Of a stretch of 32,000 nucleotides of DNA, positions 5,449 to 30,189 are shown piece after piece. Below the pieces are notes generated by a model, which was not told where the DNA came from, made no database searches, and was given only the letters and a program-made list of their open reading frames with translations. Position 1 is the stretch's first letter, and each line of letters starts with the position of its first letter. This DNA comes from Microcystis aeruginosa NIES-2549. Lineage in GTDB: Bacteria; Cyanobacteriota; Cyanobacteriia; Cyanobacteriales; Microcystaceae. A program made the position numbers and the translations under genes. The stretch is from the NCBI RefSeq assembly GCF_000981785.2, contig NZ_CP011304.1:30001-62000 (forward strand), written 5' to 3'.

Positions 5449-6732
5449 GTGACTGATACGAACTTAGATATACTATCCCTGACCGATCCAGCGATCGCAG
5501 GGATTTTGCAAAAAGAACTGCAACGTCAAAGAGATCACCTAGAATTAATCGCTAGTGAAAACTTCACCTCGGCTGCCGTCATGGCCGCCCAAGGTTCGGT
5601 TTTAACCAACAAATACGCGGAAGGACTGCCAAAAAAACGCTACTATGGCGGTTGCGAATACATTGATGAAGCGGAACAATTAGCGATCGATCGGGTTAAA
5701 CGACTATTTGGGGCAAACCACGCTAACGTACAACCCCACTCCGGGGCCCAAGCTAATTTCGCCGTTTTCCTGACCCTCTTGCAGCCAGGCGATACGATTA
5801 TGGGCATGGATCTCTCCCACGGTGGTCATCTTACCCACGGTTCCCCCGTTAACGTTTCCGGGAAATGGTTCCGAGTGGTACAGTACGGAGTAAGTCCCGA
5901 AAGCGAACGCCTTGACTACGATCTCATCCTTGACATCGCCCGCAAAGAAAAACCAAAACTAATTATCTGCGGTTATTCTGCCTACTCGCGCCGGATTGAT
6001 TTCGAGAAATTCCGCGCCATCGCTGACGAAGTGGGGGCCTACCTGATGGCAGATATCGCCCATATTGCCGGTTTAGTGGCCACTGGTCATCATCCTAACC
6101 CCCTACCCTACTGTGATGTGGTAACTACCACCACTCACAAAACTCTGCGCGGTCCTAGGGGGGGGTTAATTATGACCAAAGACGAGGAATTAGGCAAAAA
6201 ATTCGATAAATCCGTCTTCCCCGGTACCCAAGGCGGACCCCTAGAACACGTGGTCGCGGCAAAAGCAGTGGCTTTTGGGGAGGCCCTGAAACCAGAGTTT
6301 AAAATCTATTCGGGCCAAGTAATCGCTAATGCCCAAGCTTTAGCCGGTCAGTTGAAGGCTAGAGGGATTAAAATTGTCACTGATGGTACGGATAATCACT
6401 TGATGTTACTCGATTTAAGATCCGTGGGCATGACTGGGAAAGAAGCCGATCGCTTGGTCAGTACCATCAATATTACCGCTAATAAAAATACTGTTCCCTT
6501 CGATCCCGAGTCTCCCTTTGTCACCAGTGGTCTGCGCTTGGGTTCCCCGGCTATGACCACCAGAGGACTAGGAGAAACGGAATTTATCGAGATTGGCAAC
6601 ATTATCGCCGATATTCTCCTTAATCCAGGGGATGAAGCCCTGAGAACTGCTTGCCGTCAACGGGTAGCAAAACTCTGTGAAAGCTTCCCCCTCTATCCCC
6701 ATCTCCATATTTCCGTCCCCGCCTTGGCCTAA
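5449..6732 (+). CDS. glyA: Serine hydroxymethyltransferase
   Basis: 427 aa with LELIASENF and the PLP-lysine motif [17 protein letters not shown] start gives MTDTNLD..., like cyanobacterial GlyA N-termini. Confidence 0.97.
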
Positions 6733-6810: not shown

Positions 6811-7875
6811 ATGTCCGGAGATTTATACTATCTAATTGCCTTTCTGATCGCCCATACCGTGGTACTTTGGAGTACCCCCCTCGTCAGAACCGTCGGACTG
6901 AAAAGCGGTTACGTCGATAAACCCAACGAAAGGAAGGTCCATGAAAAGCCTATGGTTCGACTGGGGGGAGTTTCGATCTTTATCGGCGCTTTAACTGCCC
7001 TCCTGATTGTTTGGTGGTTGGGAGGGTTTGCTGGTTTAAACAGCGATCGAGAATGGGAAGTGTGGGGCGTAACCCTAGGCGGTTTGGGCTTTTTTCTCAT
7101 CGGTCTAGCGGATGATCTTTTTAATCTTTCGCCCCTCAATCGTCTGGTAATGCAGTTTAGCGTCGCTTTTCTAGCTTGGCAAGCCGGCGTTAGGATCGAT
7201 TTCCTCTCTATTCCCTTCGGCGATTTATTACAAATTCATTGGCTAAGTTTACCGATTACTCTCCTCTGGTTAGTGGGGATGGCTAATGCGATTAACTGGA
7301 TTGACGGTTTAGATGGATTAGCGGCGGGGGTTTCGGGTATATCTGCCGTGGTGATTTTGATTGTAACTTTGGTGATGGGACAACCGGCCGCCGCTATTAT
7401 CGCCGCTGCTTTAGCGGGTGGGGCCTTGGGTTTTCTGCGTTACAATTTTAACCCCGCCCAAATTTTTATGGGGGATGGTGGGGCCTATTTTATGGGTTTT
7501 ACCCTGGCGGGTGTGGCGGTGATTGGATTGGCTAAAACTACTGCTGTGACTACTGTTGCCGTTACCGCCGTCCTATTACCCTATCTCATCCTCGCGGTTC
7601 CTCTCCTCGATATGTCCACGGTGATTATTTCCCGTCTCAAACGCGGAAAATCCCCTTTTGTGGCTGATAAACGTCATTTACACCACCGTTTACTGAAAGC
7701 GGGTATCTCTCACCGTCTGACAGTATTATTTATCTACTCCCTAACTCTCTGGGTGGGCAGTTTAGCCCTCGGTTTCTCCAATGTTCCCAGTGGTTGGGGT
7801 TTTGCCTTTGGTGCGACTCTCCTCCTCGGTTACGTCGGTTGGCAAGTCTGGCGCAATCGTGGCAGTGAACCGTAA
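6811..7875 (+). CDS. Glycosyltransferase family 4 (MraY/WecA-type polyprenyl-phosphate HexNAc-1-phosphate transferase)
   Basis: 354 aa, polytopic membrane protein. Motifs DDLFNLSP and NAINWIDGLDGLA are typical of the MraY/WecA family. Confidence 0.9.
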   Translation: MSGDLYYLIAFLIAHTVVLWSTPLVRTVGLKSGYVDKPNERKVHEKPMVRLGGVSIFIGALTALLIVWWLGGFAGLNSDREWEVWGVTLGGLGFFLIGLADDLFNLSPLNRLVMQFSVAFLAWQAGVRIDFLSIPFGDLLQIHWLSLPITLLWLVGMANAINWIDGLDGLAAGVSGISAVVILIVTLVMGQPAAAIIAAALAGGALGFLRYNFNPAQIFMGDGGAYFMGFTLAGVAVIGLAKTTAVTTVAVTAVLLPYLILAVPLLDMSTVIISRLKRGKSPFVADKRHLHHRLLKAGISHRLTVLFIYSLTLWVGSLALGFSNVPSGWGFAFGATLLLGYVGWQVWRNRGSEP

Positions 7876-8573: not shown

Positions 8574-10130
8574 TCAAGCTCTAATCACAGTAATTCTATA
8601 TTGATTTTCTGTCACCACAACTTCAGTGGATAATCTTTCTTCCATTGGTAAGGCATTTTTTCGCCTATCAAAGATAAATAACCAACCAAAATCTAAACCC
8701 AAACGCCCTAAATAAGATTCTAATTGTTCAATTCCGTCAGCTTGCGGATTGCGTTTTTTATCCCGCCATACTTTTAATTCAATCCCTAAAGTTACATCTT
8801 TATACTGCAAACATAAATCCATTCTGTCACTACCAATTGCATATTCCCTTTCTAAAACTCCTCCACCATTAACCACACGATGTAAAAAAGCCATTAATAC
8901 TATATGTGGAGCGATTTCATGATAACCAGTGCTACCTAATAACGGTTCTCCGTGCTGTCGCCAAAATTTGAGAAATGCTGTTAATAAAGCATCTATATTT
9001 AATTCACCTTTTGCTGTCAACCAACTAGGACTAATTAAAGGTAAACTGTCCTGAGTTCCTTGTACTAAAACACGGGGAATAACTTCACGATAAATGGGGT
9101 TAGAAATAACTAATCCCCCCATCGGATCACGTCGTAATAATCCTAAATCTATTAAATATTGCCTATCATCTGCTAGGGTATCGGGTAAGGTTTGCCCTGC
9201 TAAAATTGGTTCAATAATGTTTTTAACTCGTTTTTCTCTGAGTTTTTCCGCTAAACTATCTAAATGAGTATCCTGACGAGCTATTAATATTTCTTTGGCT
9301 GTTAAAATATGTTTTTTAGTAATAGTAATACTTCTATCTTTTACCATTTTTTCTACAATTTCTTTAGCTAAGGCATTGACTAGCCAAGGTTGTCCTTGGG
9401 TTAAATCAAACGCTGTTTCTATTGCTTCTGGTGTGAAAATTTGTCCAGTTGCTGCTGTATGCTGTTGATATAATTCTCCTACTTCTGCAAGATTAAAATT
9501 TCGCATGGTAAGAGAAGCAACTTTGATATTAAAAGGACTAGATGTATTTAATCTATCACTACCACCAGATGCTACTTTATAATCTCTCACATCTCGTAAA
9601 CCAATTAATCCTACAGATGAGGGAAAATTTTCAGGACGGTTAGGAAACCCATCTCTTAACTGTCGTAAAATAGAAATTAATGTTTGGTCTTGTAAAGAGT
9701 CAATTTCATCTATAAATAATACTATGGGACGATTTAAAGATGTTGCCCAACTTTGTAAAAAAGCCTTAATTCTATTTCCTGGTTCTTCCTGTTGCCATTG
9801 TTTAGCAGCTGGTTGCAATTCTTTAGGTAAGCGGATATTTATTGTATTATACCATGCCCCTAAAATTGCCAATTCTGCGGCAGCAGGATCATGATTAAAT
9901 GCACTTCCTACTTCCACTGATACCATGACTGCGGCATAATTTCCAGTATCGGTAAGTTGTTTTGCTAGGGCTAACATTGCGGTGGTTTTCCCCGTTTGTC
10001 GTGGTGCGTGAAGGACAAAGTAACTTTCTTGTTTAATTAAATCCTCTAAATCTGGTAATCGTACTGTGGGAGATAACATATAGTGGATATCGTCTTTACA
10101 GGGACCGGCAATATTAAACCAGCGAGTCAT
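8574..10130 (-). CDS. P-loop ATPase fused to a C-terminal PD-(D/E)XK nuclease-like domain
   Basis: 518 aa. Walker A HAPRQTGKTT (K48), Walker B VLFIDEID, and C-terminal EREYAIGSDRMDLCLQYKDVTLGIELKVW (E...D...ExK). The gene is visibly AT-rich. Confidence 0.8.
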   Translation of the reverse strand: MTRWFNIAGPCKDDIHYMLSPTVRLPDLEDLIKQESYFVLHAPRQTGKTTAMLALAKQLTDTGNYAAVMVSVEVGSAFNHDPAAAELAILGAWYNTINIRLPKELQPAAKQWQQEEPGNRIKAFLQSWATSLNRPIVLFIDEIDSLQDQTLISILRQLRDGFPNRPENFPSSVGLIGLRDVRDYKVASGGSDRLNTSSPFNIKVASLTMRNFNLAEVGELYQQHTAATGQIFTPEAIETAFDLTQGQPWLVNALAKEIVEKMVKDRSITITKKHILTAKEILIARQDTHLDSLAEKLREKRVKNIIEPILAGQTLPDTLADDRQYLIDLGLLRRDPMGGLVISNPIYREVIPRVLVQGTQDSLPLISPSWLTAKGELNIDALLTAFLKFWRQHGEPLLGSTGYHEIAPHIVLMAFLHRVVNGGGVLEREYAIGSDRMDLCLQYKDVTLGIELKVWRDKKRNPQADGIEQLESYLGRLGLDFGWLFIFDRRKNALPMEERLSTEVVVTENQYRITVIRA

Positions 10131-10487: not shown

Positions 10488-11741
10488 ATGGCCGCTGAAA
10501 TTATTTGTGTAGGAACGGAATTATTATTAGGGGATATAGTTAACACTAACGCCCAATATTTAGCCTTAGAATTGGCAAAATTAGGCATTCCCCATTATTA
10601 TCAAACGGTGGTGGGGGATAATGTAGAAAGACTGAAAAAAGCGATCGCTATTGCTCGAGAACGTTCCTCAATTTTAATTTTTACCGGCGGACTGGGACCT
10701 ACTCCCGACGATTTAACCACAGAAACAATCGCCGATTTTTTCCAAACGCCCCTTAGAGAAGATAAAGAGATTTTAGCAGAAATCGAGGCTAAATTTACGA
10801 GTTTAGGGCGAGAAATGCCTCCTAGTAACAGTAAACAGGCTTTAATACCCGTGGGAGCCGATTTTTTGCCAAATCCGACGGGAACCGCCCCCGGCATGAT
10901 CTGGCAACCACAGACTAACCTGACTATTCTTACTTTCCCCGGAGTACCCTCAGAAATGAAGAGAATGTGGGTAGAAACGGCGATTCCTTACCTAGAAAGT
11001 CAAGGATGGGGCAAAGAGAGGATTTATAGTCGTTCTCTCAAATTTCGCGGTATCGGTGAGTCAGCTTTAGCGGAAAAAGTTGTCCATTTATTTGATCTGA
11101 CTAACCCCACCGTTGCCCCCTATGCTGGTTTAGGCGAAGTGCGTTTGCGAATTGCGACGAAAGCACCTTCTTTAGAGGCTGCTTTGCAGGTAATTGAACC
11201 GGTAGCGACGGAAATTAAGGAAATCGCCGGATTAGATTATTTTGGGGCTGATGATGATACTTTACCCTCGGTAGTGGGGGAACTGTTGCGGCGACAAAAA
11301 CAAACTTTGAGTGTGGCAGAATCCTGTACTGGAGGAGGATTAGGGGAAATTATCACCCAAATCGCTGGCAGTTCCGATTATTTTTGGGGTGGGGTTATTT
11401 CCTACGATAATCGGGTAAAAGTTGCCCTCTTAGACGTAAATGAGCGGGATTTAAATAATTTCGGGGCTGTCAGTGCCATTGTTGCCCAACAGATGGCCCT
11501 AGGAGTGCAAAAACGCCTCGCTACCGATTGGGGGATCAGTATCACGGGTATTGCCGGACCCGGAGGTGGCAGCGAGACGAAACCCGTGGGCCTAGTTTAT
11601 ATCGGTTTAGCCGATCCTCAGGGAAATGTCACCGTATCAGAGCATCGTTTCGGAGAAAATCGAGATCGCTTGACAATTCGCCAGATTAGTGCTTATACCG
11701 CCCTCGATCGCCTACGACGGAATTTATTAACAATATCTTAA
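10488..11741 (+). CDS. cinA: CinA-family competence/damage-inducible protein (MoCF-binding domain plus nicotinamide-nucleotide amidase domain)
   Basis: MAAEIICVGTELLLGDIVNTNAQYLA... is the canonical CinA N-terminus. C-terminal PncC-type domain (LSVAESCTGG). The ATG at 10488 is preferred over the TTG at 10476. Confidence 0.9.
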   Translation: MAAEIICVGTELLLGDIVNTNAQYLALELAKLGIPHYYQTVVGDNVERLKKAIAIARERSSILIFTGGLGPTPDDLTTETIADFFQTPLREDKEILAEIEAKFTSLGREMPPSNSKQALIPVGADFLPNPTGTAPGMIWQPQTNLTILTFPGVPSEMKRMWVETAIPYLESQGWGKERIYSRSLKFRGIGESALAEKVVHLFDLTNPTVAPYAGLGEVRLRIATKAPSLEAALQVIEPVATEIKEIAGLDYFGADDDTLPSVVGELLRRQKQTLSVAESCTGGGLGEIITQIAGSSDYFWGGVISYDNRVKVALLDVNERDLNNFGAVSAIVAQQMALGVQKRLATDWGISITGIAGPGGGSETKPVGLVYIGLADPQGNVTVSEHRFGENRDRLTIRQISAYTALDRLRRNLLTIS

Positions 11742-13950: not shown

Positions 13951-14550
13951 ATGTTAGCAGTTACTACCTCACCCGAAACCCTCTCCTTAGAAATTCCTAC
14001 GGCGCTCGCTCTCTCTATCACCCTTGAACAGTTTGAAGCCCTTGCTGTGGTCAACCGTGACTTAAAATTAGAACGTACAGCCCAAGGAGAATTAATCGTG
14101 AATCCCCCGACAGGTGGCGAATCAGGACAGCGAAATTTTCGTATAACAGGACAATTGTTTCGCTGGTGCGAAGAAAATGAAGCTTTAGGAGTCGGGTTTG
14201 ACTCTTCCACTGGATTTATACTACCAAATGGGGCGATTCGTTCTCCCGATCTATCTTGGGTGAGTCGAGAACGCTGGGAATCTTTAACCCCTAAGCAGAA
14301 AAAGGGATTTATTCCCCTCTGTCCCGATTTTGTGGTGGAATTGCGGTCTGAATCCGATAATCTTGACAAATTACAGAAAAAACTGCTCGAATATAGGGAA
14401 AATGGCGCAAGGTTAGGCTGGTTAATCGATCCCCAGAATCGGCAAGTTGAAATTTATCATCAAGGAAAGGAGGTAGAAATATTAGAAAATCCCACTGATT
14501 TATCGGGTGAAGATGTTTTACCCAATTTTAGCTTAAATTTAAAGCTCTGA
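13951..14550 (+). CDS. Uma2 (DUF820) family restriction-endonuclease-like protein
   Basis: 199 aa with ELIVNPPTGG, FDSSTGFILPNG, RSPDLSW and PDFVVELRS motifs typical of Uma2/DUF820. Confidence 0.9.
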   Translation: MLAVTTSPETLSLEIPTALALSITLEQFEALAVVNRDLKLERTAQGELIVNPPTGGESGQRNFRITGQLFRWCEENEALGVGFDSSTGFILPNGAIRSPDLSWVSRERWESLTPKQKKGFIPLCPDFVVELRSESDNLDKLQKKLLEYRENGARLGWLIDPQNRQVEIYHQGKEVEILENPTDLSGEDVLPNFSLNLKL

Positions 14551-14649
14551 TGTTTTAAGGAGTAATCCTGCGATATTCTGCCAATCTTTTTGAGATCGGG
14601 GATTCGCTTCTAAATTATCTAAGAATTCTTTTTTCTAGGTCATCATCAA

Positions 14650-15117
14650 ATGAGCATCGAAAAGTCTTTAGTCTCGTCAGGTAAAAGTCTTTATCAAGAA
14701 GATTTCTACGGATGGTTACAAGAAACCGCTAATTTACTCAAAGAACATCGTTTTGAAAAATTAGACTTAGAAAATTTAATCGAAGAAATTGAAACGATGG
14801 GAAGGAGTGAAAAACGAGAACTAGAAAGTCGCTTAACCGTCATTGCCGAACATTTGCTTAAATTGACTTACTGGCTAACTGAAAAGGAAGCAAATGCTCA
14901 AGGATGGCGCAGCACAATTGTTGAACAACGCCGACAAGTTCAACGCTTATTAAAAGAGAGTCCAAGTCTGAGAAGATTGATTCCTGAAATCTGGATAGAT
15001 TGTTACCAAGCAGCCAGAGAAGATACTGTCAGAAAGTATCAACTTGCTGCTGATTTATTCCCGATTGAATCACCCTTCACCCTTGCAGAAATCCTTGATT
15101 ATGACTATCTTCCTTAG
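14650..15117 (+). CDS. DUF29 domain protein
   Basis: 155 aa. LYQEDFYGWLQETANLLKEHRFEKLDLENLIEEIETMGRSEKRELESRL is the canonical DUF29 N-terminal pattern. Confidence 0.9.
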   Translation: MSIEKSLVSSGKSLYQEDFYGWLQETANLLKEHRFEKLDLENLIEEIETMGRSEKRELESRLTVIAEHLLKLTYWLTEKEANAQGWRSTIVEQRRQVQRLLKESPSLRRLIPEIWIDCYQAAREDTVRKYQLAADLFPIESPFTLAEILDYDYLP

Positions 15118-15359
15118 AACTAAAGTTTGGTATTTTATCGATGAAGACAATGCCCAACAAAGCCAAGCGTTAAACGGCAATCACTACCTCTGATTTACCA
15201 AATCAAAGTAAGATTTAAACTAAATTCTGGCAGAATACTTTCCCCCGATAAACTCTCTGGATTAGTTAAAATTTCTACTGCCTGTCCTTGACGATAAATT
15301 TCTACTTCTCTCGTTTTTCTATTGATTAACCAACCTAAACGAGTCCCATTATCTAAATA

Positions 15360-17041
15360 GGGTTTGCTGAATAATGGTAAAAACCTTACAGGAAAGGGCT
15401 TTTAGCTTGATTGAGAGCTTCCCAAATGCACTTAAATCTGCTAGAATCTCTTAAAACCCTTGCATCACCCTTGCATCTTCTCTAATTAGTGCTAATGTAC
15501 CGTAAAAGCGAGTTACCCTCAACCCCACCAGAAAACTTCGAGCTGCCCTTTGAGGGGAAATTATCCCAAGACAATCGTTGGGTAATTATGGCCAACCTCA
15601 TTCCCTGGTCAGAATTTGAAGCGGAATACGCATCACTTTTTTCAGAAGAAATGGGCACACCCGCCAAAACATTCAGGACAGCACTCGGAGCATTAATTAT
15701 TAAAGAAAAATTAGGAACAAGCGATAGAGAAACGGTAGAACAAATCAAAGAAAATCCTTATTTACAATACTTCTTGGGGTTTTCATCCTACAGCAATGAA
15801 CCCCGGTTTGAAGCGTCAATGTTGGTTCACTTTCGAGAAAGAATCACTCTGGAACTAATTAATAAAGTGAATCGCTTTATGGTCAAAAATTCGAGAGAAA
15901 TAAAAGAAGAAGAAAATACCGAAAAAAAGTTAGAGAGCGAAACCCAAAGTCAACCAGAAAATCGAGGTAAATTAATTTTAGATGCCAGTTGTGCGCCCGC
16001 AGATATTAGTTATCCTACGGATTTAAACCTGTTAAATCAAGGAAGAAAACAAACCGAAAAAATTATTGATATTCTCTATGAAACTTTAAAAGGAAAACTT
16101 GTTCAAAAACCGAGAACCTATCGTCTTCTAGCCAGAAAAAGTTATTTAGAAGTAGCGAAAAAAAGAAAACCTACCGTCAAACAAAGACGAAAAGCTCTGA
16201 AAAGACAACTGCAATATCTGAAAAGAAATCTCGACCATATTGAACAACTTTTAGCAGAAGGAGCCTCTCTACAAAGCTTGAAAAAAAGAGACTATAAGCT
16301 GTTATTAGTAGTCACAGAAGTTTATCGCCAACAACTCTGGATGTACCAAAATAACAAACAGAGTATTGAAGACAGAATTGTCAGCTTAACTCAACCCCAC
16401 ATCCGTCCGATAGTCAGAGGAAAAGCTGGAAAACCCGTAGAATTTGGGGCTAAATTCTCAGCAAGCTGTATAGATGGTTACATATTTTTAGACCGAATTA
16501 GTTGGGATAACTTTAATGAATCAGGAGATTTAAAAGCACAAATAGAAGCTTATTATGACTATACAGGATACTATCCAGAATCAGTTCATGTGGACAAAAT
16601 TTATCGAACCAGAGAAAACCGAGCTTGGTGTAAAGAAAGGGGAATCAGAATCAGTGGTCCCCCATTAGGAAGACCAGCCAAAAATGTTAGTAAAGAACAA
16701 AAGAAACAAGCTACCGATGATGAGAGGATTCGGAATTGTATAGAGGGCAAATTTGGACAGGGGAAAAGAAGATTTAGCTTAGGTAAAGTGATGGCTAAAC
16801 TTCCTCATACTTCCTTTTCAGCGATTGCTATTACTTTTTTAGTCATGAATCTTTCTAACCTGTTGAGGCAGGTTTTTTGGGCTTTTTTATGTCTGAAATG
16901 GAAAAACAGCACTTTTTCTCGGTCAATGATTAGGATAAGTTATAACTTAAAAATTAATCAACAACTAAAGCTTATGCTTGTAGCTAAGTGAAATCATTGA
17001 TTAAGAGACCTGTACTTTTCAATGACTTTTTCAGCAAACCC
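15360..17041 (+). mobile_element. Intact insertion sequence (IS4/IS5 superfamily), 1682 bp
   Basis: Terminal inverted repeats GGGTTTGCTGAA(T/A)AA at both ends. Flanked by direct TAAATA, which is single in the uninterrupted paralog at 17644-17649. One 498-500-aa transposase ORF. Confidence 0.85.
15495..16991 (+). CDS. DDE transposase (DUF772-like N-terminal domain plus IS4/IS5-type DDE domain)
   Basis: LGALIIKEKLGTSDRETVEQIKENPYLQYFLGF (DUF772-like), LILDASCAPADISYPTD, VHVDKIYRTRENRAWCKERGIRI and RNCIEGKFGQGKRRF. Start is the ATG at 15495 or the GTG at 15489. Confidence 0.9.
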   Translation: MYRKSELPSTPPENFELPFEGKLSQDNRWVIMANLIPWSEFEAEYASLFSEEMGTPAKTFRTALGALIIKEKLGTSDRETVEQIKENPYLQYFLGFSSYSNEPRFEASMLVHFRERITLELINKVNRFMVKNSREIKEEENTEKKLESETQSQPENRGKLILDASCAPADISYPTDLNLLNQGRKQTEKIIDILYETLKGKLVQKPRTYRLLARKSYLEVAKKRKPTVKQRRKALKRQLQYLKRNLDHIEQLLAEGASLQSLKKRDYKLLLVVTEVYRQQLWMYQNNKQSIEDRIVSLTQPHIRPIVRGKAGKPVEFGAKFSASCIDGYIFLDRISWDNFNESGDLKAQIEAYYDYTGYYPESVHVDKIYRTRENRAWCKERGIRISGPPLGRPAKNVSKEQKKQATDDERIRNCIEGKFGQGKRRFSLGKVMAKLPHTSFSAIAITFLVMNLSNLLRQVFWAFLCLKWKNSTFSRSMIRISYNLKINQQLKLMLVAK

Positions 17042-17484
17042 TAAATATTCCTGCATTTTTTTCCTAGTAGTTTCTAGGCTATCACTAGGAGACATTAATT
17101 CAATGACAAAATCGGGAGATAGAGGTAAAAATCTTTCCTTTTGTTGCGGGGTTAAAGCTTGCCATTTTTCTAAAGGTATCCAAGCAGCATCGGGAGAGCG
17201 ATCGGCCCCATTCGGTAGTTTAAACCCCGTGGAGGAATCAAAAACTACACCTAATTTATGTAGGTTATTCCATAACCATAATTGGGCAGTGATTCCAGCG
17301 TTAGAATTACCAGTTTTTCCTCCAGTTGGTGGCATAATAATTAAATCTCCTTTCGCGTTGCGTTCCAAACGTAAATCTCGGTTATCCTGACACAGTTGAA
17401 AAAACTGTTCATCGCTAAGTTGCCAAGATTCAAATTTAATTTCTACTACTGTCATCATAGATTCTCTTTTATAGGATTATAGAA

Positions 17485-18054
17485 TTACCAAATATTATCA
17501 AGTTCTAAGACAAATTGAGATAAAATATTTTCCCCCGATAAACTTTCTGGATTAGTTAAAATTTCTACTGCCTGTCCTTGACGATAAATTTCTACTTGTC
17601 TAGTTTTTCTATTGATTAACCAACCTAAACGAGTCCCATTATCTAAATATTCCTGCATTTTTCTCCTAGCAGTTTCTATATTGTCACTAGGAGACATTAA
17701 TTCAATGACAAAATCGGGAGATAGAGGTAAAAATCTTTCCTTTTGTTGGGGGTTTAAAGCTTGCCATTTTTCTAAAGGTATCCAAGCAGCATCGGGAGAG
17801 CGATCAGCCCCATTAGGTAGTTTAAATCCTGTGGAGGAATCAAAAGCGATACCCGTACCATTGTTATCTGACCAATTAAATAATTTTTGGGTGATTCTAC
17901 CGTTACTATTGCCCGTTTTTCCTCCAGTCGGTGGCATAATAATTAAATCTCCTTTCGCGCTGCGTTCCAAACGTAAATCTCGGTTATCCTGACAAAGTTG
18001 AAAGAACTGTTCATCGCTCAGTTGCCAAGATTCAAATTTAACTTCTACTGTCAT
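17485..18054 (-). CDS. Uma2 (DUF820) family restriction-endonuclease-like protein, tandem paralog of the split copy
   Basis: Same motifs as the other copies. The ATG at 18054 (MTVEVKFESW...) is preferred over the TTG at 18066. Lies 31-43 nt downstream of accC on the same strand. Confidence 0.9.
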   Translation of the reverse strand: MTVEVKFESWQLSDEQFFQLCQDNRDLRLERSAKGDLIIMPPTGGKTGNSNGRITQKLFNWSDNNGTGIAFDSSTGFKLPNGADRSPDAAWIPLEKWQALNPQQKERFLPLSPDFVIELMSPSDNIETARRKMQEYLDNGTRLGWLINRKTRQVEIYRQGQAVEILTNPESLSGENILSQFVLELDNIW

Positions 18055-18097
18055 TATTATCCCCAACCTACTCTCGTCTAAAATTCATGGTAACGCC

Positions 18098-25484: not shown

Positions 25485-25669
25485 TTATGGAGATTTCCAC
25501 TCTCCCTCTGGGATCATGGCTGTAATCATGATGTTAGGCAATGTTCCGGTGGGTAAATCTCTCCCTTGATGGTAAGGTACGATAACTTGAGTATCTTGAT
25601 CCCTTCAAAGTTATACTTGCGTAATATGCGCTCAACCTCGTCAGCATTCATTCTCCCGAGTCGAGTCAT
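25485..25669 (-). pseudogene. hicA: hicA-like toxin remnant (internal out-of-frame deletion)
   Basis: The ATG at 25669 overlaps the hicB stop (ATGA). The N-terminus MTRLGRMNADEVERILRKYNFE is HicA-like. The C-terminal half (QDTQVIVPYHQGRDLPTGTLPNIMITAMIPEGEWKSP) is readable only in another frame. The central GSH-type segment is absent, and the first frame stops after 47 codons at 25526. Confidence 0.55.
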
Positions 25670-25869
25670 CCGACCATAACCTCACGGATTACTGCTCCGG
25701 GTAGAAGGTCGATAGCATCAGGTTGTAAATAAAGCTCGATCGCTTCGCGTATATTTTTGAGAGCTTCCTCTTGTGTAATACCGGCAGATGTGCATCCGGG
25801 CAGTTCTGGACACCAAATTGCCCATTCGTTTGTATCGGGATCGGGTTCAAGTATCACTCGCCATTTCAT
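25666..25869 (-). CDS. hicB: HicB-family antitoxin (UPF0150-type, 67 aa)
   Basis: MKWRVILEPDPDTNEWAIWCPELPGCTSAGITQEEALKNIREAIELYL is the typical short HicB fold signature. Confidence 0.8.
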   Translation of the reverse strand: MKWRVILEPDPDTNEWAIWCPELPGCTSAGITQEEALKNIREAIELYLQPDAIDLLPGAVIREVMVG

Positions 25870-26634: not shown

Positions 26635-26951
26635 ATTAATTATCCAGAAACTTTCCGAATAAGGAGAGTAAGGATATGCCGAAAGTTTCCGCATATCACC
26701 CCGTTTTGTCGATTCCTGACAATCAGCCGAAATAACATCAGCTTTTCCCCCGGAATTTTAGCACCAATTGTTCAATCTGACTGCACTTCGTAACAAAAAT
26801 TTACAACTCGATTATAAGCGATCGCACTCCCGTCCGTCGCTGTGCCTAGATGTTTTTAGATTATTATCATTTGCTTGAATCAATGACCATGGTGTGTTCC
26901 CCAAAATCGATCGCTGCAGCGGTAGGACTCGCATCAGGGAACGCACTTTAC
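26635..26951 (+). repeat. R1: copy 1 of a ~316-bp direct repeat
   Basis: Aligns end to end by eye with 28372-28687 (about 38 differences including a 1-nt indel, roughly 88% identity). Confidence 0.9.
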
Positions 26952-26982
26952 CATATCTACCCTAGCGGCGATCATACTGCAC

Positions 26983-28275
26983 TTAAGAATATCTACTGTT
27001 TAACTTTTCAGCCAATGCCATCCAACTCCTAGCAGAAACTCCAAAAAAGTCTTTAGCTTCTTGAAAACTTGAAAATCTGTTTTGTAGTTCTTCAGGACTA
27101 TAAGTGATTTTGATACTCCAGTCTTCTCGCATTAGTTTGAAGGCAAGCTTTGAGTTATTTTCAAATAGATCTTGTGCCAGGTTTAGCCAATCCTCTGCTT
27201 GGGATGAGAAATGCTCACGAGCAGCATAAAAATCGAAAAGCTTGTCTTCAAGTATAGAGGCTAGGTAATCAACATCACTTGGATCATAGCCAGCAAACTC
27301 TTGGGATAAATTTTCATTTGTATGGAGTAAAGTATTATCTTGTGCTTTATCCTTTTCTTGAAGCATTCTTGCAAGGTCATACCAATTGTCCGCTTCAATT
27401 TCAAAAGTCAGGCAGGCATTGTCAAAGATAATGTATTCATCCTCTAGCTCAAGAGCTAAAGCTTTTATAAGCTCTGCTTCTGCTTTTTCCCGCTCTCTGC
27501 GTCTAGCTTCTGCTTCTTGCCGAGCTACTATTTCAGGGTTCAGCTTTGTCTGAAAACTTCTTGCTTCAGTGTCTTTAAGTTTTTTCTTGAGCTTTAGATC
27601 TGCAACTGCTCTTTGTGCATTTTCATATACGTCTATTTTTTTCTGAAGGTATTTGTCAACGTTTTTAATTAGTATTATATCAATTAGAATAACTGCAAAA
27701 ATGGCTCCAATGATTAGCGTAAGATTGGCTGATTTAGAGAACAAGTATATAATGATAACTACAGGAATTAGGACAGCAGATACTCTAGTAAGTAGCTGAA
27801 ACGACTTATTTTGTTGATACTCTTGAAGCTTTTGGCGATCTTGTAGAAATGTTGATTCGTAACTACGTATCGCATCAAGGGACACAATCCTTAAGCATTT
27901 ATTTAACTTATCTTGCACAATTGGCAAGTTGCGTTGGGCTGTTGAAAGAAAGTTGTCTAGCTCATTTAAGACTCGATCATTAGTATTGCTTATGTCTGCA
28001 TTCATAGAAGCCCTAGTTGTCGATGATCCTTTGTATCGGAGGATTCGTCCATGACCTCTGGCCTGACTACGGGCTTCTCTAACCCAATATTTCAGTGCAG
28101 ATTTTTCGTTGCGAATATTATTAATTGTCTCTCGGTATATCTCAATTGCTCTTAAGCAAATAACCCCTATCTTTTTAGCTGTTTCAGCGTTAATATCGTC
28201 TTTTGATATTTCCCAAATATCTTGTGTTCTAGTTCTGATCTCAGTGGGTTTTATATACTGATAGGTATATCTCAT
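26983..28275 (-). CDS. Orphan 430-aa membrane protein: helical N-domain, 2-TM hairpin, charged coiled coil, three C-terminal W-x-x-L-A repeats
   Basis: Long uninterrupted ORF with an ATG start. TM helices at about residues 161-179 and 185-203. The EAEARRREREKAEAE segment. Repeats ADNWYDLARML / AEDWLNLAQDL / ARSWMALAEKL. Lower GC than its neighbours. I recognise no family. Confidence 0.75.
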   Translation of the reverse strand: MRYTYQYIKPTEIRTRTQDIWEISKDDINAETAKKIGVICLRAIEIYRETINNIRNEKSALKYWVREARSQARGHGRILRYKGSSTTRASMNADISNTNDRVLNELDNFLSTAQRNLPIVQDKLNKCLRIVSLDAIRSYESTFLQDRQKLQEYQQNKSFQLLTRVSAVLIPVVIIIYLFSKSANLTLIIGAIFAVILIDIILIKNVDKYLQKKIDVYENAQRAVADLKLKKKLKDTEARSFQTKLNPEIVARQEAEARRREREKAEAELIKALALELEDEYIIFDNACLTFEIEADNWYDLARMLQEKDKAQDNTLLHTNENLSQEFAGYDPSDVDYLASILEDKLFDFYAAREHFSSQAEDWLNLAQDLFENNSKLAFKLMREDWSIKITYSPEELQNRFSSFQEAKDFFGVSARSWMALAEKLNSRYS

Positions 28276-28371
28276 TTGTTTTATCTTTTTGTGCAGCTAC
28301 AGTAGTGGCATTAAACATTCATGCTGCTGCTCATAGCTTAAGCGGCACAGATGTGAAGATGCCAGCTAAAC

Positions 28372-28687
28372 ATTAATTATACAGAAACTTTCCGAATAAC
28401 CAGAGTAAGGATATGGGGAAACTTTCGACATATCACCCCATTTTGTAGATTTCTGACAATCAGCCGAAATAACATCAGCTTTTCGCCAAGGTTGCAGCAC
28501 CAATTGTTCAATCTGACTGCACTTCGTAACAAAAATTTACAACTTGATCATAAGCGATCACACTCCCATCGATCACTGTGCCTAGACGTTTTTAGATTAT
28601 TATCATTTACTTGAATCAATGATCATGGTGCGTTCCCCAAAATTGATCGCTGGAGCGGTAGGAGTTACATTAGGGAACGCACCCTAC
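28372..28687 (+). repeat. R2: copy 2 of the ~316-bp direct repeat
   Basis: See R1. Bracketed by an 11-bp direct repeat CATTAATTATA (28371-28381 and 28702-28712). Confidence 0.9.
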
Positions 28688-28902
28688 AGCTTGGAGATGT
28701 CCATTAATTATACCGCTCCCTGCTGCCAACTCCGGCACTCATGGACAGCCTTAACGAGTAATTTAGAGAGTCAACAGCTTAGTGGTCTGTCAATCTTGAA
28801 ATTGTGGATAGGGGAATCCGGCCAAATTATTCGCCCCCAATCCCTCAAAATCATCTTAACAGACCAATAGAATCGCCCTTAATTTTTGTGGATTGTCGGC
28901 CC

Positions 28903-30189
28903 CTAACTATATTCCTCCCCGACACTGAGATTAAAGAGCATTTGCAGGGATTGTAAACAGCGCTTACGCGCTTCGATATCCTGTTGGGCCCGCAGTTGTA
29001 CCATGGGTTCGTGAAGGATTTTATTAACGATACCGCGGGTCATTGCTTCGATAACTTCTTGGTGTTTTTCGGCGAATTCCGTCCCCAAACGGGAGAGGGC
29101 CTTTTCTAATTCCTGTTCGCGAATATCTTCAATTTTGCTTCTTAAACAGCTAATTGTCGGTACAGTGTCCAAAGAACGCCACCAAAGCTCGAAAGCTTCC
29201 ACTTCCTGCTCTAGGAGTGCCTCTGCTTCCCTGGCCATCTGACGGCGACTTTCCTGATTGGCGGCAACCACCGCTTTAAGATCATCGACGTTAAAAGCTT
29301 GCACTTGTGCCAATTCCTTCACGTCGGTGTGGACGTTGCGGGGAACAGAAATATCGATTAACATCAGCGAGTTAGCAGCAATCGTCACTTCTGTCAATAA
29401 ATTTTTAGTTAAAATTGGTTCCGTGGCCCCGGTACTGGTAAAGACGATATCCGATGCCGCTACCGTAGCCATCATCTCTTCTAAGCCATATAGTTGGATT
29501 GGTACGTTAGGAAATTCACAGGCCAACTCCTGGGCCCGTCTTTGGGAGCGATTGACGATCGCAATTTGCTGAGAACCCTTAGCCAGAAGGTGAGTAACTA
29601 ATAATCGGGACATTTTCCCTGCCCCGATAATAGCGATTTTCTTGCTGCTGAGGTCTGCCACCTTAGCATGGGCTAACTCCACCGCCGCCGAACTGATCGA
29701 TACGGCTCCCGTGCCGATGCTGGTTTCCGTGCGGACGCGTTTACCGGCAGTCATCGCTTGTTTAAACAGGCGATCGAGTAATTGGCTAATACTATTGTAC
29801 TTTTGAGCTAATTTATGGGTATTTTTAACTTGAGCGAGAATTTGCCCTTCCCCGAGGACAAGACTTTCTAAACCGGCCGACACCCGGAGCAGATGACGGA
29901 CAGCATCCTGATGCAGTAGGGTAAACAGATAACGACGCAGGACATTAAGGGGAATATGCCCGATTTCAGCGAGAAACTGGGTAATTTCCACCACGCCCTT
30001 TTCCGTATCCGTAACCACGGCGTAGATTTCCAAACGGTTACAGGTGCTGATAATAGCCACCTCTTGGATGTGGGGATAACCCTTGAGGTGGGTAAGGGCG
30101 GACTCGATTTTCGCTTCCGGGATACTCAATTTTTCGCGAATTTCCACAGGGGCTGTCTTGTGACTCAAGCCCACTACAGCAATATTCAT
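28903..30189 (-). CDS. hemA: Glutamyl-tRNA reductase
   Basis: 428 aa. [31 protein letters not shown] and the NADPH-binding IGAGKM motif. Confidence 0.97.

Follow-up and report, generated by a model that had tools for sequence, protein, structure and literature searches.

SLATT domains, of which two adjacent transmembrane (TM) helices are a trait, are said to have been described in conflict systems by Burroughs and colleagues in 2015, and the lactococcal Abi genes are solitary, low-GC, horizontally mobile abortive-infection genes. Microcystis is a major bloom-former whose genomes are known for unusually many defence and toxin-antitoxin (TA) genes. Integrons are known in cyanobacteria (PMC4889954, PMC8618304), and integron cassettes of uncharacterised function often or repeatedly encode phage defence (bioRxiv 10.1101/2024.07.02.601719; PMC8618304). 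Here we consider an open reading frame (ORF) encoding a 430-amino-acid (aa) membrane protein in a stretch of 32,000 nucleotides (nt) of Microcystis aeruginosa NIES-2549, positions 30,001 to 62,000 of contig NZ_CP011304.1, which we call the window. Like SLATT domains, the protein has two adjacent TM helices. We tentatively read it, with a probability of about 0.35, as a single-protein membrane effector of the conflict, defence or abortive-infection type, because its gene has the traits expected of a conflict gene: it is rare and AT-rich, it was transferred recently and is inactivated in places, purifying selection acts on it, and it is self-contained and always set among TA and defence genes.

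The rarity of the family is seen in searches of very large collections. A word-indexed search of 5.8 billion protein clusters returned 11 relatives with the protein as query and 20 with the family profile, and an exhaustive HMMER search of 1.84 billion representatives, clustered at 50% identity, gave 32 proteins at E≤0.001, ten of which share the C-terminal module alone. Wherever a family member could be traced to an organism, that organism was a cyanobacterium. The gene of subfamily A, to which the window's copy belongs, was confirmed by a two-pattern genome scan in only 3 of 185,579 species representatives, namely Cyanocohniella (Nostocales), Symploca (Coleofasciculales) and an Elainellales metagenome-assembled genome. 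Complete genomes with the gene include those of M. aeruginosa NIES-2549, EAWAG127a and Leptolyngbya sp. BL0902. The window's product is 100% identical to M. aeruginosa NIES3806_15640 and to WP_046660480, the latter also in strain NIES-2549, and the accessions of the protein are nowhere mentioned in the literature that we searched. The protein is thus a member of an undescribed, very rare cyanobacterial family. An earlier reading of the window, made from the letters alone (the sequence-only reading), had called it an orphan; this stands in that no known family matches, but it is not a singleton.

Pairwise Nei-Gojobori estimates among the Microcystis, Cyanocohniella and JGI metagenome copies gave an overall dN/dS of 0.19-0.29. 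At least four genera keep the frame of 430 codons uninterrupted, and 13 residues are invariant across subfamilies A and B, which are only about 23% identical. Judged by these values, the gene is real and under purifying selection. In all three pairwise comparisons dS was lower in the 3′ half of the gene (0.03-0.19, the regions of the C-terminal modules) than in the 5′ half (0.22-0.54); recombination and nucleotide-level constraint are both possibilities.

The GC content of the gene is 0.368 and its GC at third codon positions (GC3) 0.292, against 0.460±0.042 and 0.432±0.082 in the 15 other large ORFs of the window. The low GC noticed from hand counts in the sequence-only reading is therefore real, although two other ORFs of the window, an AAA_35 ATPase and a DDE transposase, are equally GC-poor. 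The Microcystis (Chroococcales) and Cyanocohniella (Nostocales) copies share 92.7% DNA identity, restricted to positions 26977-28393 of the window, that is, to the ORF, 6 nt past its stop codon and 118 nt ahead of its start, with a dS of 0.15 between them. Moreover, the GC content of the gene is 0.36-0.38 in all hosts, and the Leptolyngbya copy (0.378) lies inside flanks of 0.570. Since the identity is confined to the ORF and its upstream region, dS is low and GC does not follow the host, the comparison shows a single-gene unit, carrying its own upstream region, that was recently transferred horizontally. The horizontally acquired single-gene module among TA systems proposed earlier is well supported by these results, by the two Microcystis loci in which the gene is found and by its ParE-like and HicB-like neighbours.

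Indeed, in every host the gene has a TA pair or some other gene of a mobile type as its neighbour: VapB-PIN, Phd-PIN with Fic, or ParE-like genes, and, in Cyanocohniella, an AAA_35 ATPase with a transposase. In strains of the NIES-3806 type it stands between hemA and a ParE-type TA pair. In strain EAWAG127a (contig L037) it occupies a second, unlinked locus, between a DnaJ-domain gene and a DUF4160/DUF2442 pair, and in a third Microcystis strain the copy at this DnaJ-side locus is truncated at residue 203 by an ISL3 element. An empty site, sought via the exact HemA protein, was not found, as this query retrieved only near-identical strains, all of which carry the gene.

The protein and its parts, with positions in the window, are as follows.
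26983..28275, minus strand: orphan membrane-protein ORF, ATG start, 430 aa
27796..28275, minus strand: N-terminal helical domain, residues 1-160, net charge +9
27973..28113, minus strand: family-wide conserved basic motif, residues 55-101, from the alignment of both subfamilies
27667..27795, minus strand: two-TM hairpin, residues 161-203, by Kyte-Doolittle hydropathy, loop SKSAN
27463..27666, minus strand: lysine-rich charged helical linker, residues 204-271, net charge about +6
27346..27462, minus strand: module 1, residues 272-310 (Y..F..AC......W..LA), net charge -8, conserved in both subfamilies
27151..27267, minus strand: module 2, residues 337-375, net charge -6, missing from Leptolyngbya-type homologs
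26986..27108, minus strand: module 3, residues 390-430 (YTV..L...F.SF.EAK..FG..A.SW..LA.KLN), predicted three-helix unit, predicted local distance difference test score (pLDDT) 92.5

Hydropathy and sequence bear out the architecture first described, with its helical N-domain, two TM segments at 27667-27795, lysine-rich stretch and charged coil (ARQEAEARRREREKAEAELIKALALELE). The N-domain is the part with the strongest conservation (dN/dS 0.08-0.15), and 11 of the 13 invariant residues fall in its basic motif (E57, K58, L61, W64, R66, R73, S85, R88, S96, N97 and D100), where R69, K82, N92, A93 and I95 are nearly invariant. Two strong hydropathy peaks (19-residue window) cover residues 161-179 and 185-203, split by the 5-residue loop SKSAN and flanked on either side by K/R-rich sequence; the stretch is hydrophobic in all family members, and the sequence of the loop varies among homologs. 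By the positive-inside rule, K/R-rich flanks of TM segments face the cytoplasm. Both large parts of the protein are therefore most likely cytoplasmic, as predicted from these flanks and the shortness of the loop. The full-length AlphaFold2 (AF2) model is all-helical, with helices at residues 30-78, 85-130, 133-180 (running into TM1) and 185-244 (running out of TM2); its pLDDT is about 72-91 in the N-domain, except for a loop at about residues 71-90 of low confidence (about 57).

Comparison with Pfam, NCBIfam, PADLOC, PHROGs and the PDB sequences gave nothing significant for the 430-aa protein. When 17 members were scanned singly, together with profiles, against the same databases, no match was significant or recurrent; isolated weak matches, each in one member, were to SLATT_1 (E 0.0097), CorA and ZorA, and family profiles against the PDB sequences returned TM noise only. 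Clear homology to a housekeeping membrane family, named in the sequence-only reading as evidence against it, appeared in none of the Pfam, NCBIfam, PHROGs and PDB searches. A Foldseek search with the full-length model retrieved only generic coiled coils (E>0.05). The likeness to SLATT domains that had been suggested was not borne out, as the protein has no SLATT match at E≤10 and only the one member among 17 shows any. Furthermore, the six subfamily A and five subfamily B contexts contain no nucleotide-signalling gene (SMODS/CD-NTase, SLOG, TIR or similar). A CorA Mg2+ channel was also considered and rejected: the Pfam match of the protein is weak (E 0.013; 15.3 bits, cutoff 27), the GMN motif is missing and the SKSAN loop is variable.

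How might such a protein act? The effector that we favour would be a self-contained conflict gene serving phage defence, abortive infection or exclusion. The conserved basic N-domain and the TM hairpin would form the membrane-acting part, probably oligomeric, and the acidic C-terminal modules a sensor or autoinhibitory part whose ligand would be a protein and not DNA. Once a trigger was bound, the membrane-acting part would be freed, leading either to a collapse of membrane integrity or to the block of a step at the envelope.

Several observations weigh against such an effector. Microcystis is so packed with TA genes that guilt by association is weak. The sequences of the TM segments and of their loop are poorly conserved, and suit a simple anchor as well as a pore. 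The overall pLDDT of the full-length model is just 65. The PADLOC-DB 2.0 defence models gave 0 matches for the protein and isolated ones among the 17 members, and no relatives were found in IMG/VR viral contigs, phage records or plasmid records. Finally, the cargo found between pieces of repeat D, a Microcystis repeat that brackets the gene and is described below, includes non-defence genes, namely a globin, a GT2 glycosyltransferase and DUF1349.

The C-terminal modules open the way to another explanation. Three repeats 55-65 aa apart had been claimed, and they do begin at residues 284, 349 and 404 (spacings 65 and 55 aa), with a similarity beyond chance: in profile-profile comparison the three repeat types align in register with probabilities of 93-96.5% (P 1e-7 to 1e-9), and they are concordant also at upstream positions that were not used in their selection. 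When a hidden Markov model (HMM) was built only from modules found in unrelated proteins, it recognised repeat 1 of the Leptolyngbya homologs (domain E 2e-6), and the repeat-2 HMM detects repeat 1 of the 430-aa protein (E 5.5e-5). Within this protein the links of repeat 3 are weak, with E 0.8 to repeat 1 and E 30 to repeat 2. Judged by the shared register and the cross-detecting HMMs, the three repeats are copies of one module of about 38 aa. Modelled alone (AF2, 21 sequences), the module is predicted to consist of three short helices, the second and third of which are joined by a loop of 6 residues. In module 3, which is neutral (net charge 0) and also occurs in unrelated proteins, the G-x-S turn region, K19, R/K27 and K35 are conserved. 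The module alignment returned nothing from the largest protein database, the module being too short for a database of that size, and the Foldseek search with the module model gave no match below E=1 (best E 3.7 and 1.7, in PDB and BFVD), a 41-residue query having little statistical power.

The module recurs in many unrelated architectures: in tandem arrays (P0028, P0030), twice ahead of a weak DnaJ match in P0031 (Pfam DnaJ E 5e-5, 23.8 bits, below the 27.8 cutoff), after TPR repeats (P0035) and at the end of small coiled-coil proteins. It is an undescribed domain, predicted to have three helices, common to several cyanobacterial protein architectures. The module-bearing proteins that we noted are P0028, P0030, P0031, P0035, P0036 and P0038-P0041, with the consensus YTV..LK..F.SF.EAK..FGI.A.SW..LA.KLN. 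A further small coiled-coil protein with the module, recognised by eye from its motif (weak match, E 0.3), is encoded on plasmid pNSMS101 of Nostoc sp. MS1 (L053, 3935-4483), beside a type I CRISPR-Cas locus.

Such a versatile domain would suit a membrane-tethered adaptor or scaffold, in which the hairpin is an anchor and the modules are protein-docking units, with no lethal or defence role. The range of architectures fits this explanation, and so do the poorly conserved TM sequences. However, an adaptor accounts neither for the conservation of the N-domain, the highest in the protein, and the 13 invariant residues, nor for the sporadic, recently transferred and insertion-sequence-disrupted distribution of the gene. 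We consider it rather unlikely, though worth keeping in mind.

A different role is raised by subfamily B, whose members (five contigs) share the N-domain, the hairpin and module 1 with subfamily A and depart from it at the C-terminus. In contig L028 the subfamily B gene (260-1471) overlaps by 4 nt a gene for an SNase-type nuclease with a signal peptide (1468-2127; PF00565, E 5e-22), and a small secreted peptide of the type 'HGG..GCH..HCH' is encoded upstream (102-251). In a second contig an SNase gene lies about 900 nt from the subfamily B gene, and a third contains an Excalibur-domain ORF (the contigs include P0043 and P0020); two subfamily B contigs also share the same pair of ORFs directly upstream, of 72 and 113 aa. 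These links are what one would expect if the 430-aa protein were the membrane partner (regulator, anchor or immunity protein) of a secreted SNase-type nuclease, the partner having been lost or separated in the window's subfamily. Yet they concern just three of the five subfamily B contigs, two of them from one sample, and a nuclease neighbour is found in none of the six subfamily A contexts, window included. Moreover, the large domains are predicted to be cytoplasmic, whereas the nuclease is secreted. A metagenome scan for subfamily B loci found none. The linkage between subfamily B and nucleases is a lead and not a pattern, and such a partnership for the window's protein seems improbable to us.

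The manner in which the gene moves leads to a further alternative. The features of the locus that matter here are the following.
28276..28393, minus strand: upstream region that moved with the ORF between genera; TATAAT at 28376-28381 (minus strand), boundary motif GTTTAGCTGGCATC at 28358-28371
26878..28484, minus strand: segment common to both Microcystis loci (that of the window and that of EAWAG127a, L037), 98.9% identity
28372..28687, no strand assigned: repeat D, upstream copy; its head adjoins the gene, hairpin at 28627-28683
26635..26951, no strand assigned: repeat D, downstream copy; its hairpin starts about 35 nt past the stop codon
26081..26580, minus strand: following cassette, likewise oriented, coding for a putative antitoxin of 75 aa and a ParE-like toxin of 91 aa

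The attC sites of integrons have the consensus boxes RYYYAAC ... GTTRRRY. Homology between Cyanocohniella and the JGI contig L015 opens exactly at GTTAGCTGGCATC and closes about 165 nt past the stop codon, where L015 repeats GTTAGCTGGC; the exact inverse, ATGCCAGCTAAC, lies in the 3′ region. The conserved unit starts at GTTAGATGGCATC in the Elainellales copy and, in the window, at the GTTTAGCTGGCATC motif (28358-28371, minus strand), so that in four hosts the 5′ edge lies at a GTTAG core, as at a cassette boundary with a GTT core. The L015 copy of the gene terminates in an imperfect palindrome of 90 nt that includes a GCTAAC/GTTAGC pair and resembles that of the preceding PIN cassette. This element carries a 9/9 CCAGCTAAC/GTTAGCTGG pair and folds, as single-stranded DNA, into an imperfect hairpin closed by the boxes (z -2.5), a fold shared by the element that follows the preceding PIN cassette (z -3.1). 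L015 has three strict AAC...GTT sites (six counting both strands), against 0.58 expected by shuffling. Imperfect palindromes of about 90-120 nt (...CTAAC / GTTAG...) lie between co-oriented cassettes in L015 (7290-7377, 8930-9021 and 79-174) and in L027 (about 1394-1516), and the cassettes split by these attC-like palindromes are Phd-PIN, the 430-aa gene and antitoxin-Fic.

In the window, no RYYYAAC/GTTRRRY pair lies near the gene, and repeat D follows its stop codon: the 3′ palindromic element is lost, replaced by D, and the 5′ motif alone survives. No integrase Pfam match is listed on any contig, most contigs being shorter than 15 kb. Membership among integron cassettes is thus partial, and the window copy falls outside it. 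A transposon bounded by terminal inverted repeats (GTTAGCTGGCAT...ATGCCAGCTAAC) is less likely than an attC-type unit, since homology between the hosts continues for 76 nt beyond the inverted copy, as far as the position of a second direct core. We also considered a riboswitch or leader RNA in the conserved 5′ region and rejected it, as the region matches no known RNA family and its folding is ordinary (z 0.16).

Within Microcystis, the segment 26878-28484 is the cassette as moved. The two D copies of the window are direct repeats of about 316 nt, 89-90% identical, that bracket the gene. A metagenome scan with a 26-nt D core found ten Microcystis contigs, several with two to four copies; D occurs in L043-L052, and in L037 it lies at 5792-5904, 7330-7398, 9081-9402 and 10828-10882. 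Read in the orientation of the gene, D opens with a hairpin of 55-74 nt, placed 10-40 nt behind the stop codon of a co-oriented ORF, and closes with about 113 nt that end in TATAAT and lie 55-100 nt ahead of the next ORF start (27 mapped copies). D would act as a terminator-promoter spacer. One and the same DnaJ-side slot, with identical D pieces as its borders, is occupied by an NYN/OST-HTH gene in L044 and by the 430-aa gene in L037; D is dispersed in Microcystis and bounds a slot with alternative cargo. Other cargo found between D pieces includes Shedu SduA_C, PIN, DUF433/DUF5615, ParE-like, XisH/XisI and DUF4160/DUF2442 genes, the Shedu domain (E 3.6e-10) being that of a 425-aa protein in L048 (1885-3162) with D-repeat fragments on both sides. 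The D-bounded arrays mainly hold TA and defence-type genes, and the cassettes would move by recombination between D copies. As a candidate attC site D was rejected: its head lacks a stem fold closed by AAC/GTT, and this head stands upstream, not downstream, of the ORF with which it travels. Two ORFs, 28619-28870 (plus strand; annotated in GenBank as an 83-aa gene) and 26850-27032 (plus strand), start within the D copies and share the translated hairpin stretch SPK.IA.AVG...GNA.Y; both look like by-products of the repeat.

Slots bounded by D with interchangeable cargo are the most useful by-product of our analysis. They would help to explain the shuffling of accessory genes in Microcystis, and looking between D copies is a practical route to further unrecognised defence genes.

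A gene that travels in this way could promote the maintenance or spread of its cassette or array instead of benefiting its host; it would then be either a toxin of the addiction type that controls itself or an accessory factor of mobility. What is transferred is precisely the gene plus its upstream region, recombination-prone repeats lie on both sides, L015 has its attC-like element, and the neighbours are addiction modules, all of which would agree with a selfish role. However, neither the fold nor any motif of a recombinase, nuclease or transposase can be recognised in the protein, and its model is all-helical with a TM hairpin; purifying selection across hosts suits selfish and host-beneficial roles alike. 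We hold this explanation, too, to have little chance of being right.

Other parts of the window are also of note. A 518-aa AAA_35-type ATPase (8574-10130, minus strand; GC 0.362, GC3 0.204) is 80% identical to the product of the gene directly upstream of the Cyanocohniella homolog (L025, 568-2118), and is thus a second gene common to both distant hosts. A functional link between this ATPase and the 430-aa gene was considered and rejected: the two genes are 17 kb apart in the window, and the ATPase is missing from the other contexts. At 25526-25869 (minus strand) a HicB-like antitoxin (25666-25869) is followed by a 47-aa ORF without a family match (25526-25669), which may be a truncated HicA toxin. 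The stretch 13951-18066, with three Uma2-family (putative restriction endonuclease) genes, a DUF29 gene and the DDE transposase (15489-16991, GC 0.371), is a further variable, mobile-looking region.

The repeats could also make the protein a membrane-anchored DNA-binding regulator, in which helix-turn-helix (HTH) or SAP/HeH-like units would tether DNA or control transcription. The compact three-helix module, with its G-x-S turn region and its conserved K19, R/K27 and K35, has something of such a unit, and its motif pattern has what we take, by eye, to be a resemblance to HTHs of the excisionase or MerR type. However, no HTH, NUMOD, SAP or HeH match appeared even in permissive sequence searches, nor by Foldseek, in which so short a query has little power; for HTH and NUMOD the sequence searches covered Pfam at E≤10 for the protein and at E≤0.1 for eight module-bearing proteins, and a PDB profile search. 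The NUMOD1-like HTH that the sequence-only reading proposed for the last repeat is thus not supported, and the loop between helices 2 and 3 has six residues. Furthermore, the charges of modules 1, 2 and 3 (-8, -6 and 0) are not those of a basic DNA-binding surface, and the strong acidity of the first two makes DNA binding unlikely. From the missing HTH and NUMOD matches, and from acidic modules set against an N-domain of +9, it is more likely that the modules bind protein than DNA, and we find a DNA-binding regulator very improbable.

The last explanation, a decaying or spurious ORF without function, could appeal to the ISL3-truncated Microcystis copy and to several fragmentary metagenome versions, mostly on very short contigs, but we give it a negligible chance and regard it as refuted by the selection analysis, since the dN/dS values, the frame kept intact in several genera and the invariant motifs shared with so distant a subfamily exclude a dead gene.

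If the effector that we favour is real, the known defence repertoire would gain a compact membrane effector, encoded by a single gene that moves across cyanobacterial orders, and it would be easily testable. A bolder version makes the protein the founder of a new, cyanobacteria-specific class of single-protein, membrane-acting anti-phage effectors, in which acidic three-helix sensor modules would gate the basic helical domain and the hairpin. Its cassette would spread in an attC-like manner in some hosts and, in Microcystis, by an undescribed 'terminator-promoter' repeat that would swap defence and TA genes among fixed slots without a dedicated integrase. We regard this version as unlikely.

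How does the 430-aa gene compare, then, with described systems? With SLATT_1 to SLATT_6 it has in common two close TM helices flanked by cytoplasmic helices, a defence-type neighbourhood and a plausible membrane-perturbing role. It differs from them in having neither a profile match nor a SMODS, SLOG or cyclase partner gene, and in the place of its hairpin, which lies mid-protein, after a conserved 160-aa domain that SLATT proteins lack. CorA offers a second structural parallel, with a long cytoplasmic helix running into TM1, a short loop and a lysine-rich stretch after TM2, but the family is without the GMN motif, its loop is not conserved and the match lies far below threshold.

In its genetics the gene resembles the lactococcal Abi genes, being likewise solitary, AT-rich relative to its host, mobile and sporadic in distribution, although it has no sequence relationship to them and belongs to another host phylum. 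Like integron cassettes, it is a single-gene unit found in co-oriented, TA-rich arrays, with a GTTAG boundary at its 5′ end and, in L015, a 3′ palindrome of about 90 nt with AAC...GTT boxes, and homology between hosts stops at the second core. Unlike them, it has no 3′ palindrome in the window, where D does not fold as an attC site, no integrase is seen on any of the mostly short contigs, the boxes are one base off RYYYAAC/GTTRRRY, and the 430-aa cassette carries its own upstream region of about 100 nt. The protein family and its module are undescribed; accessory membrane proteins encoded by mobile cassettes in defence-gene surroundings are already known as a type.

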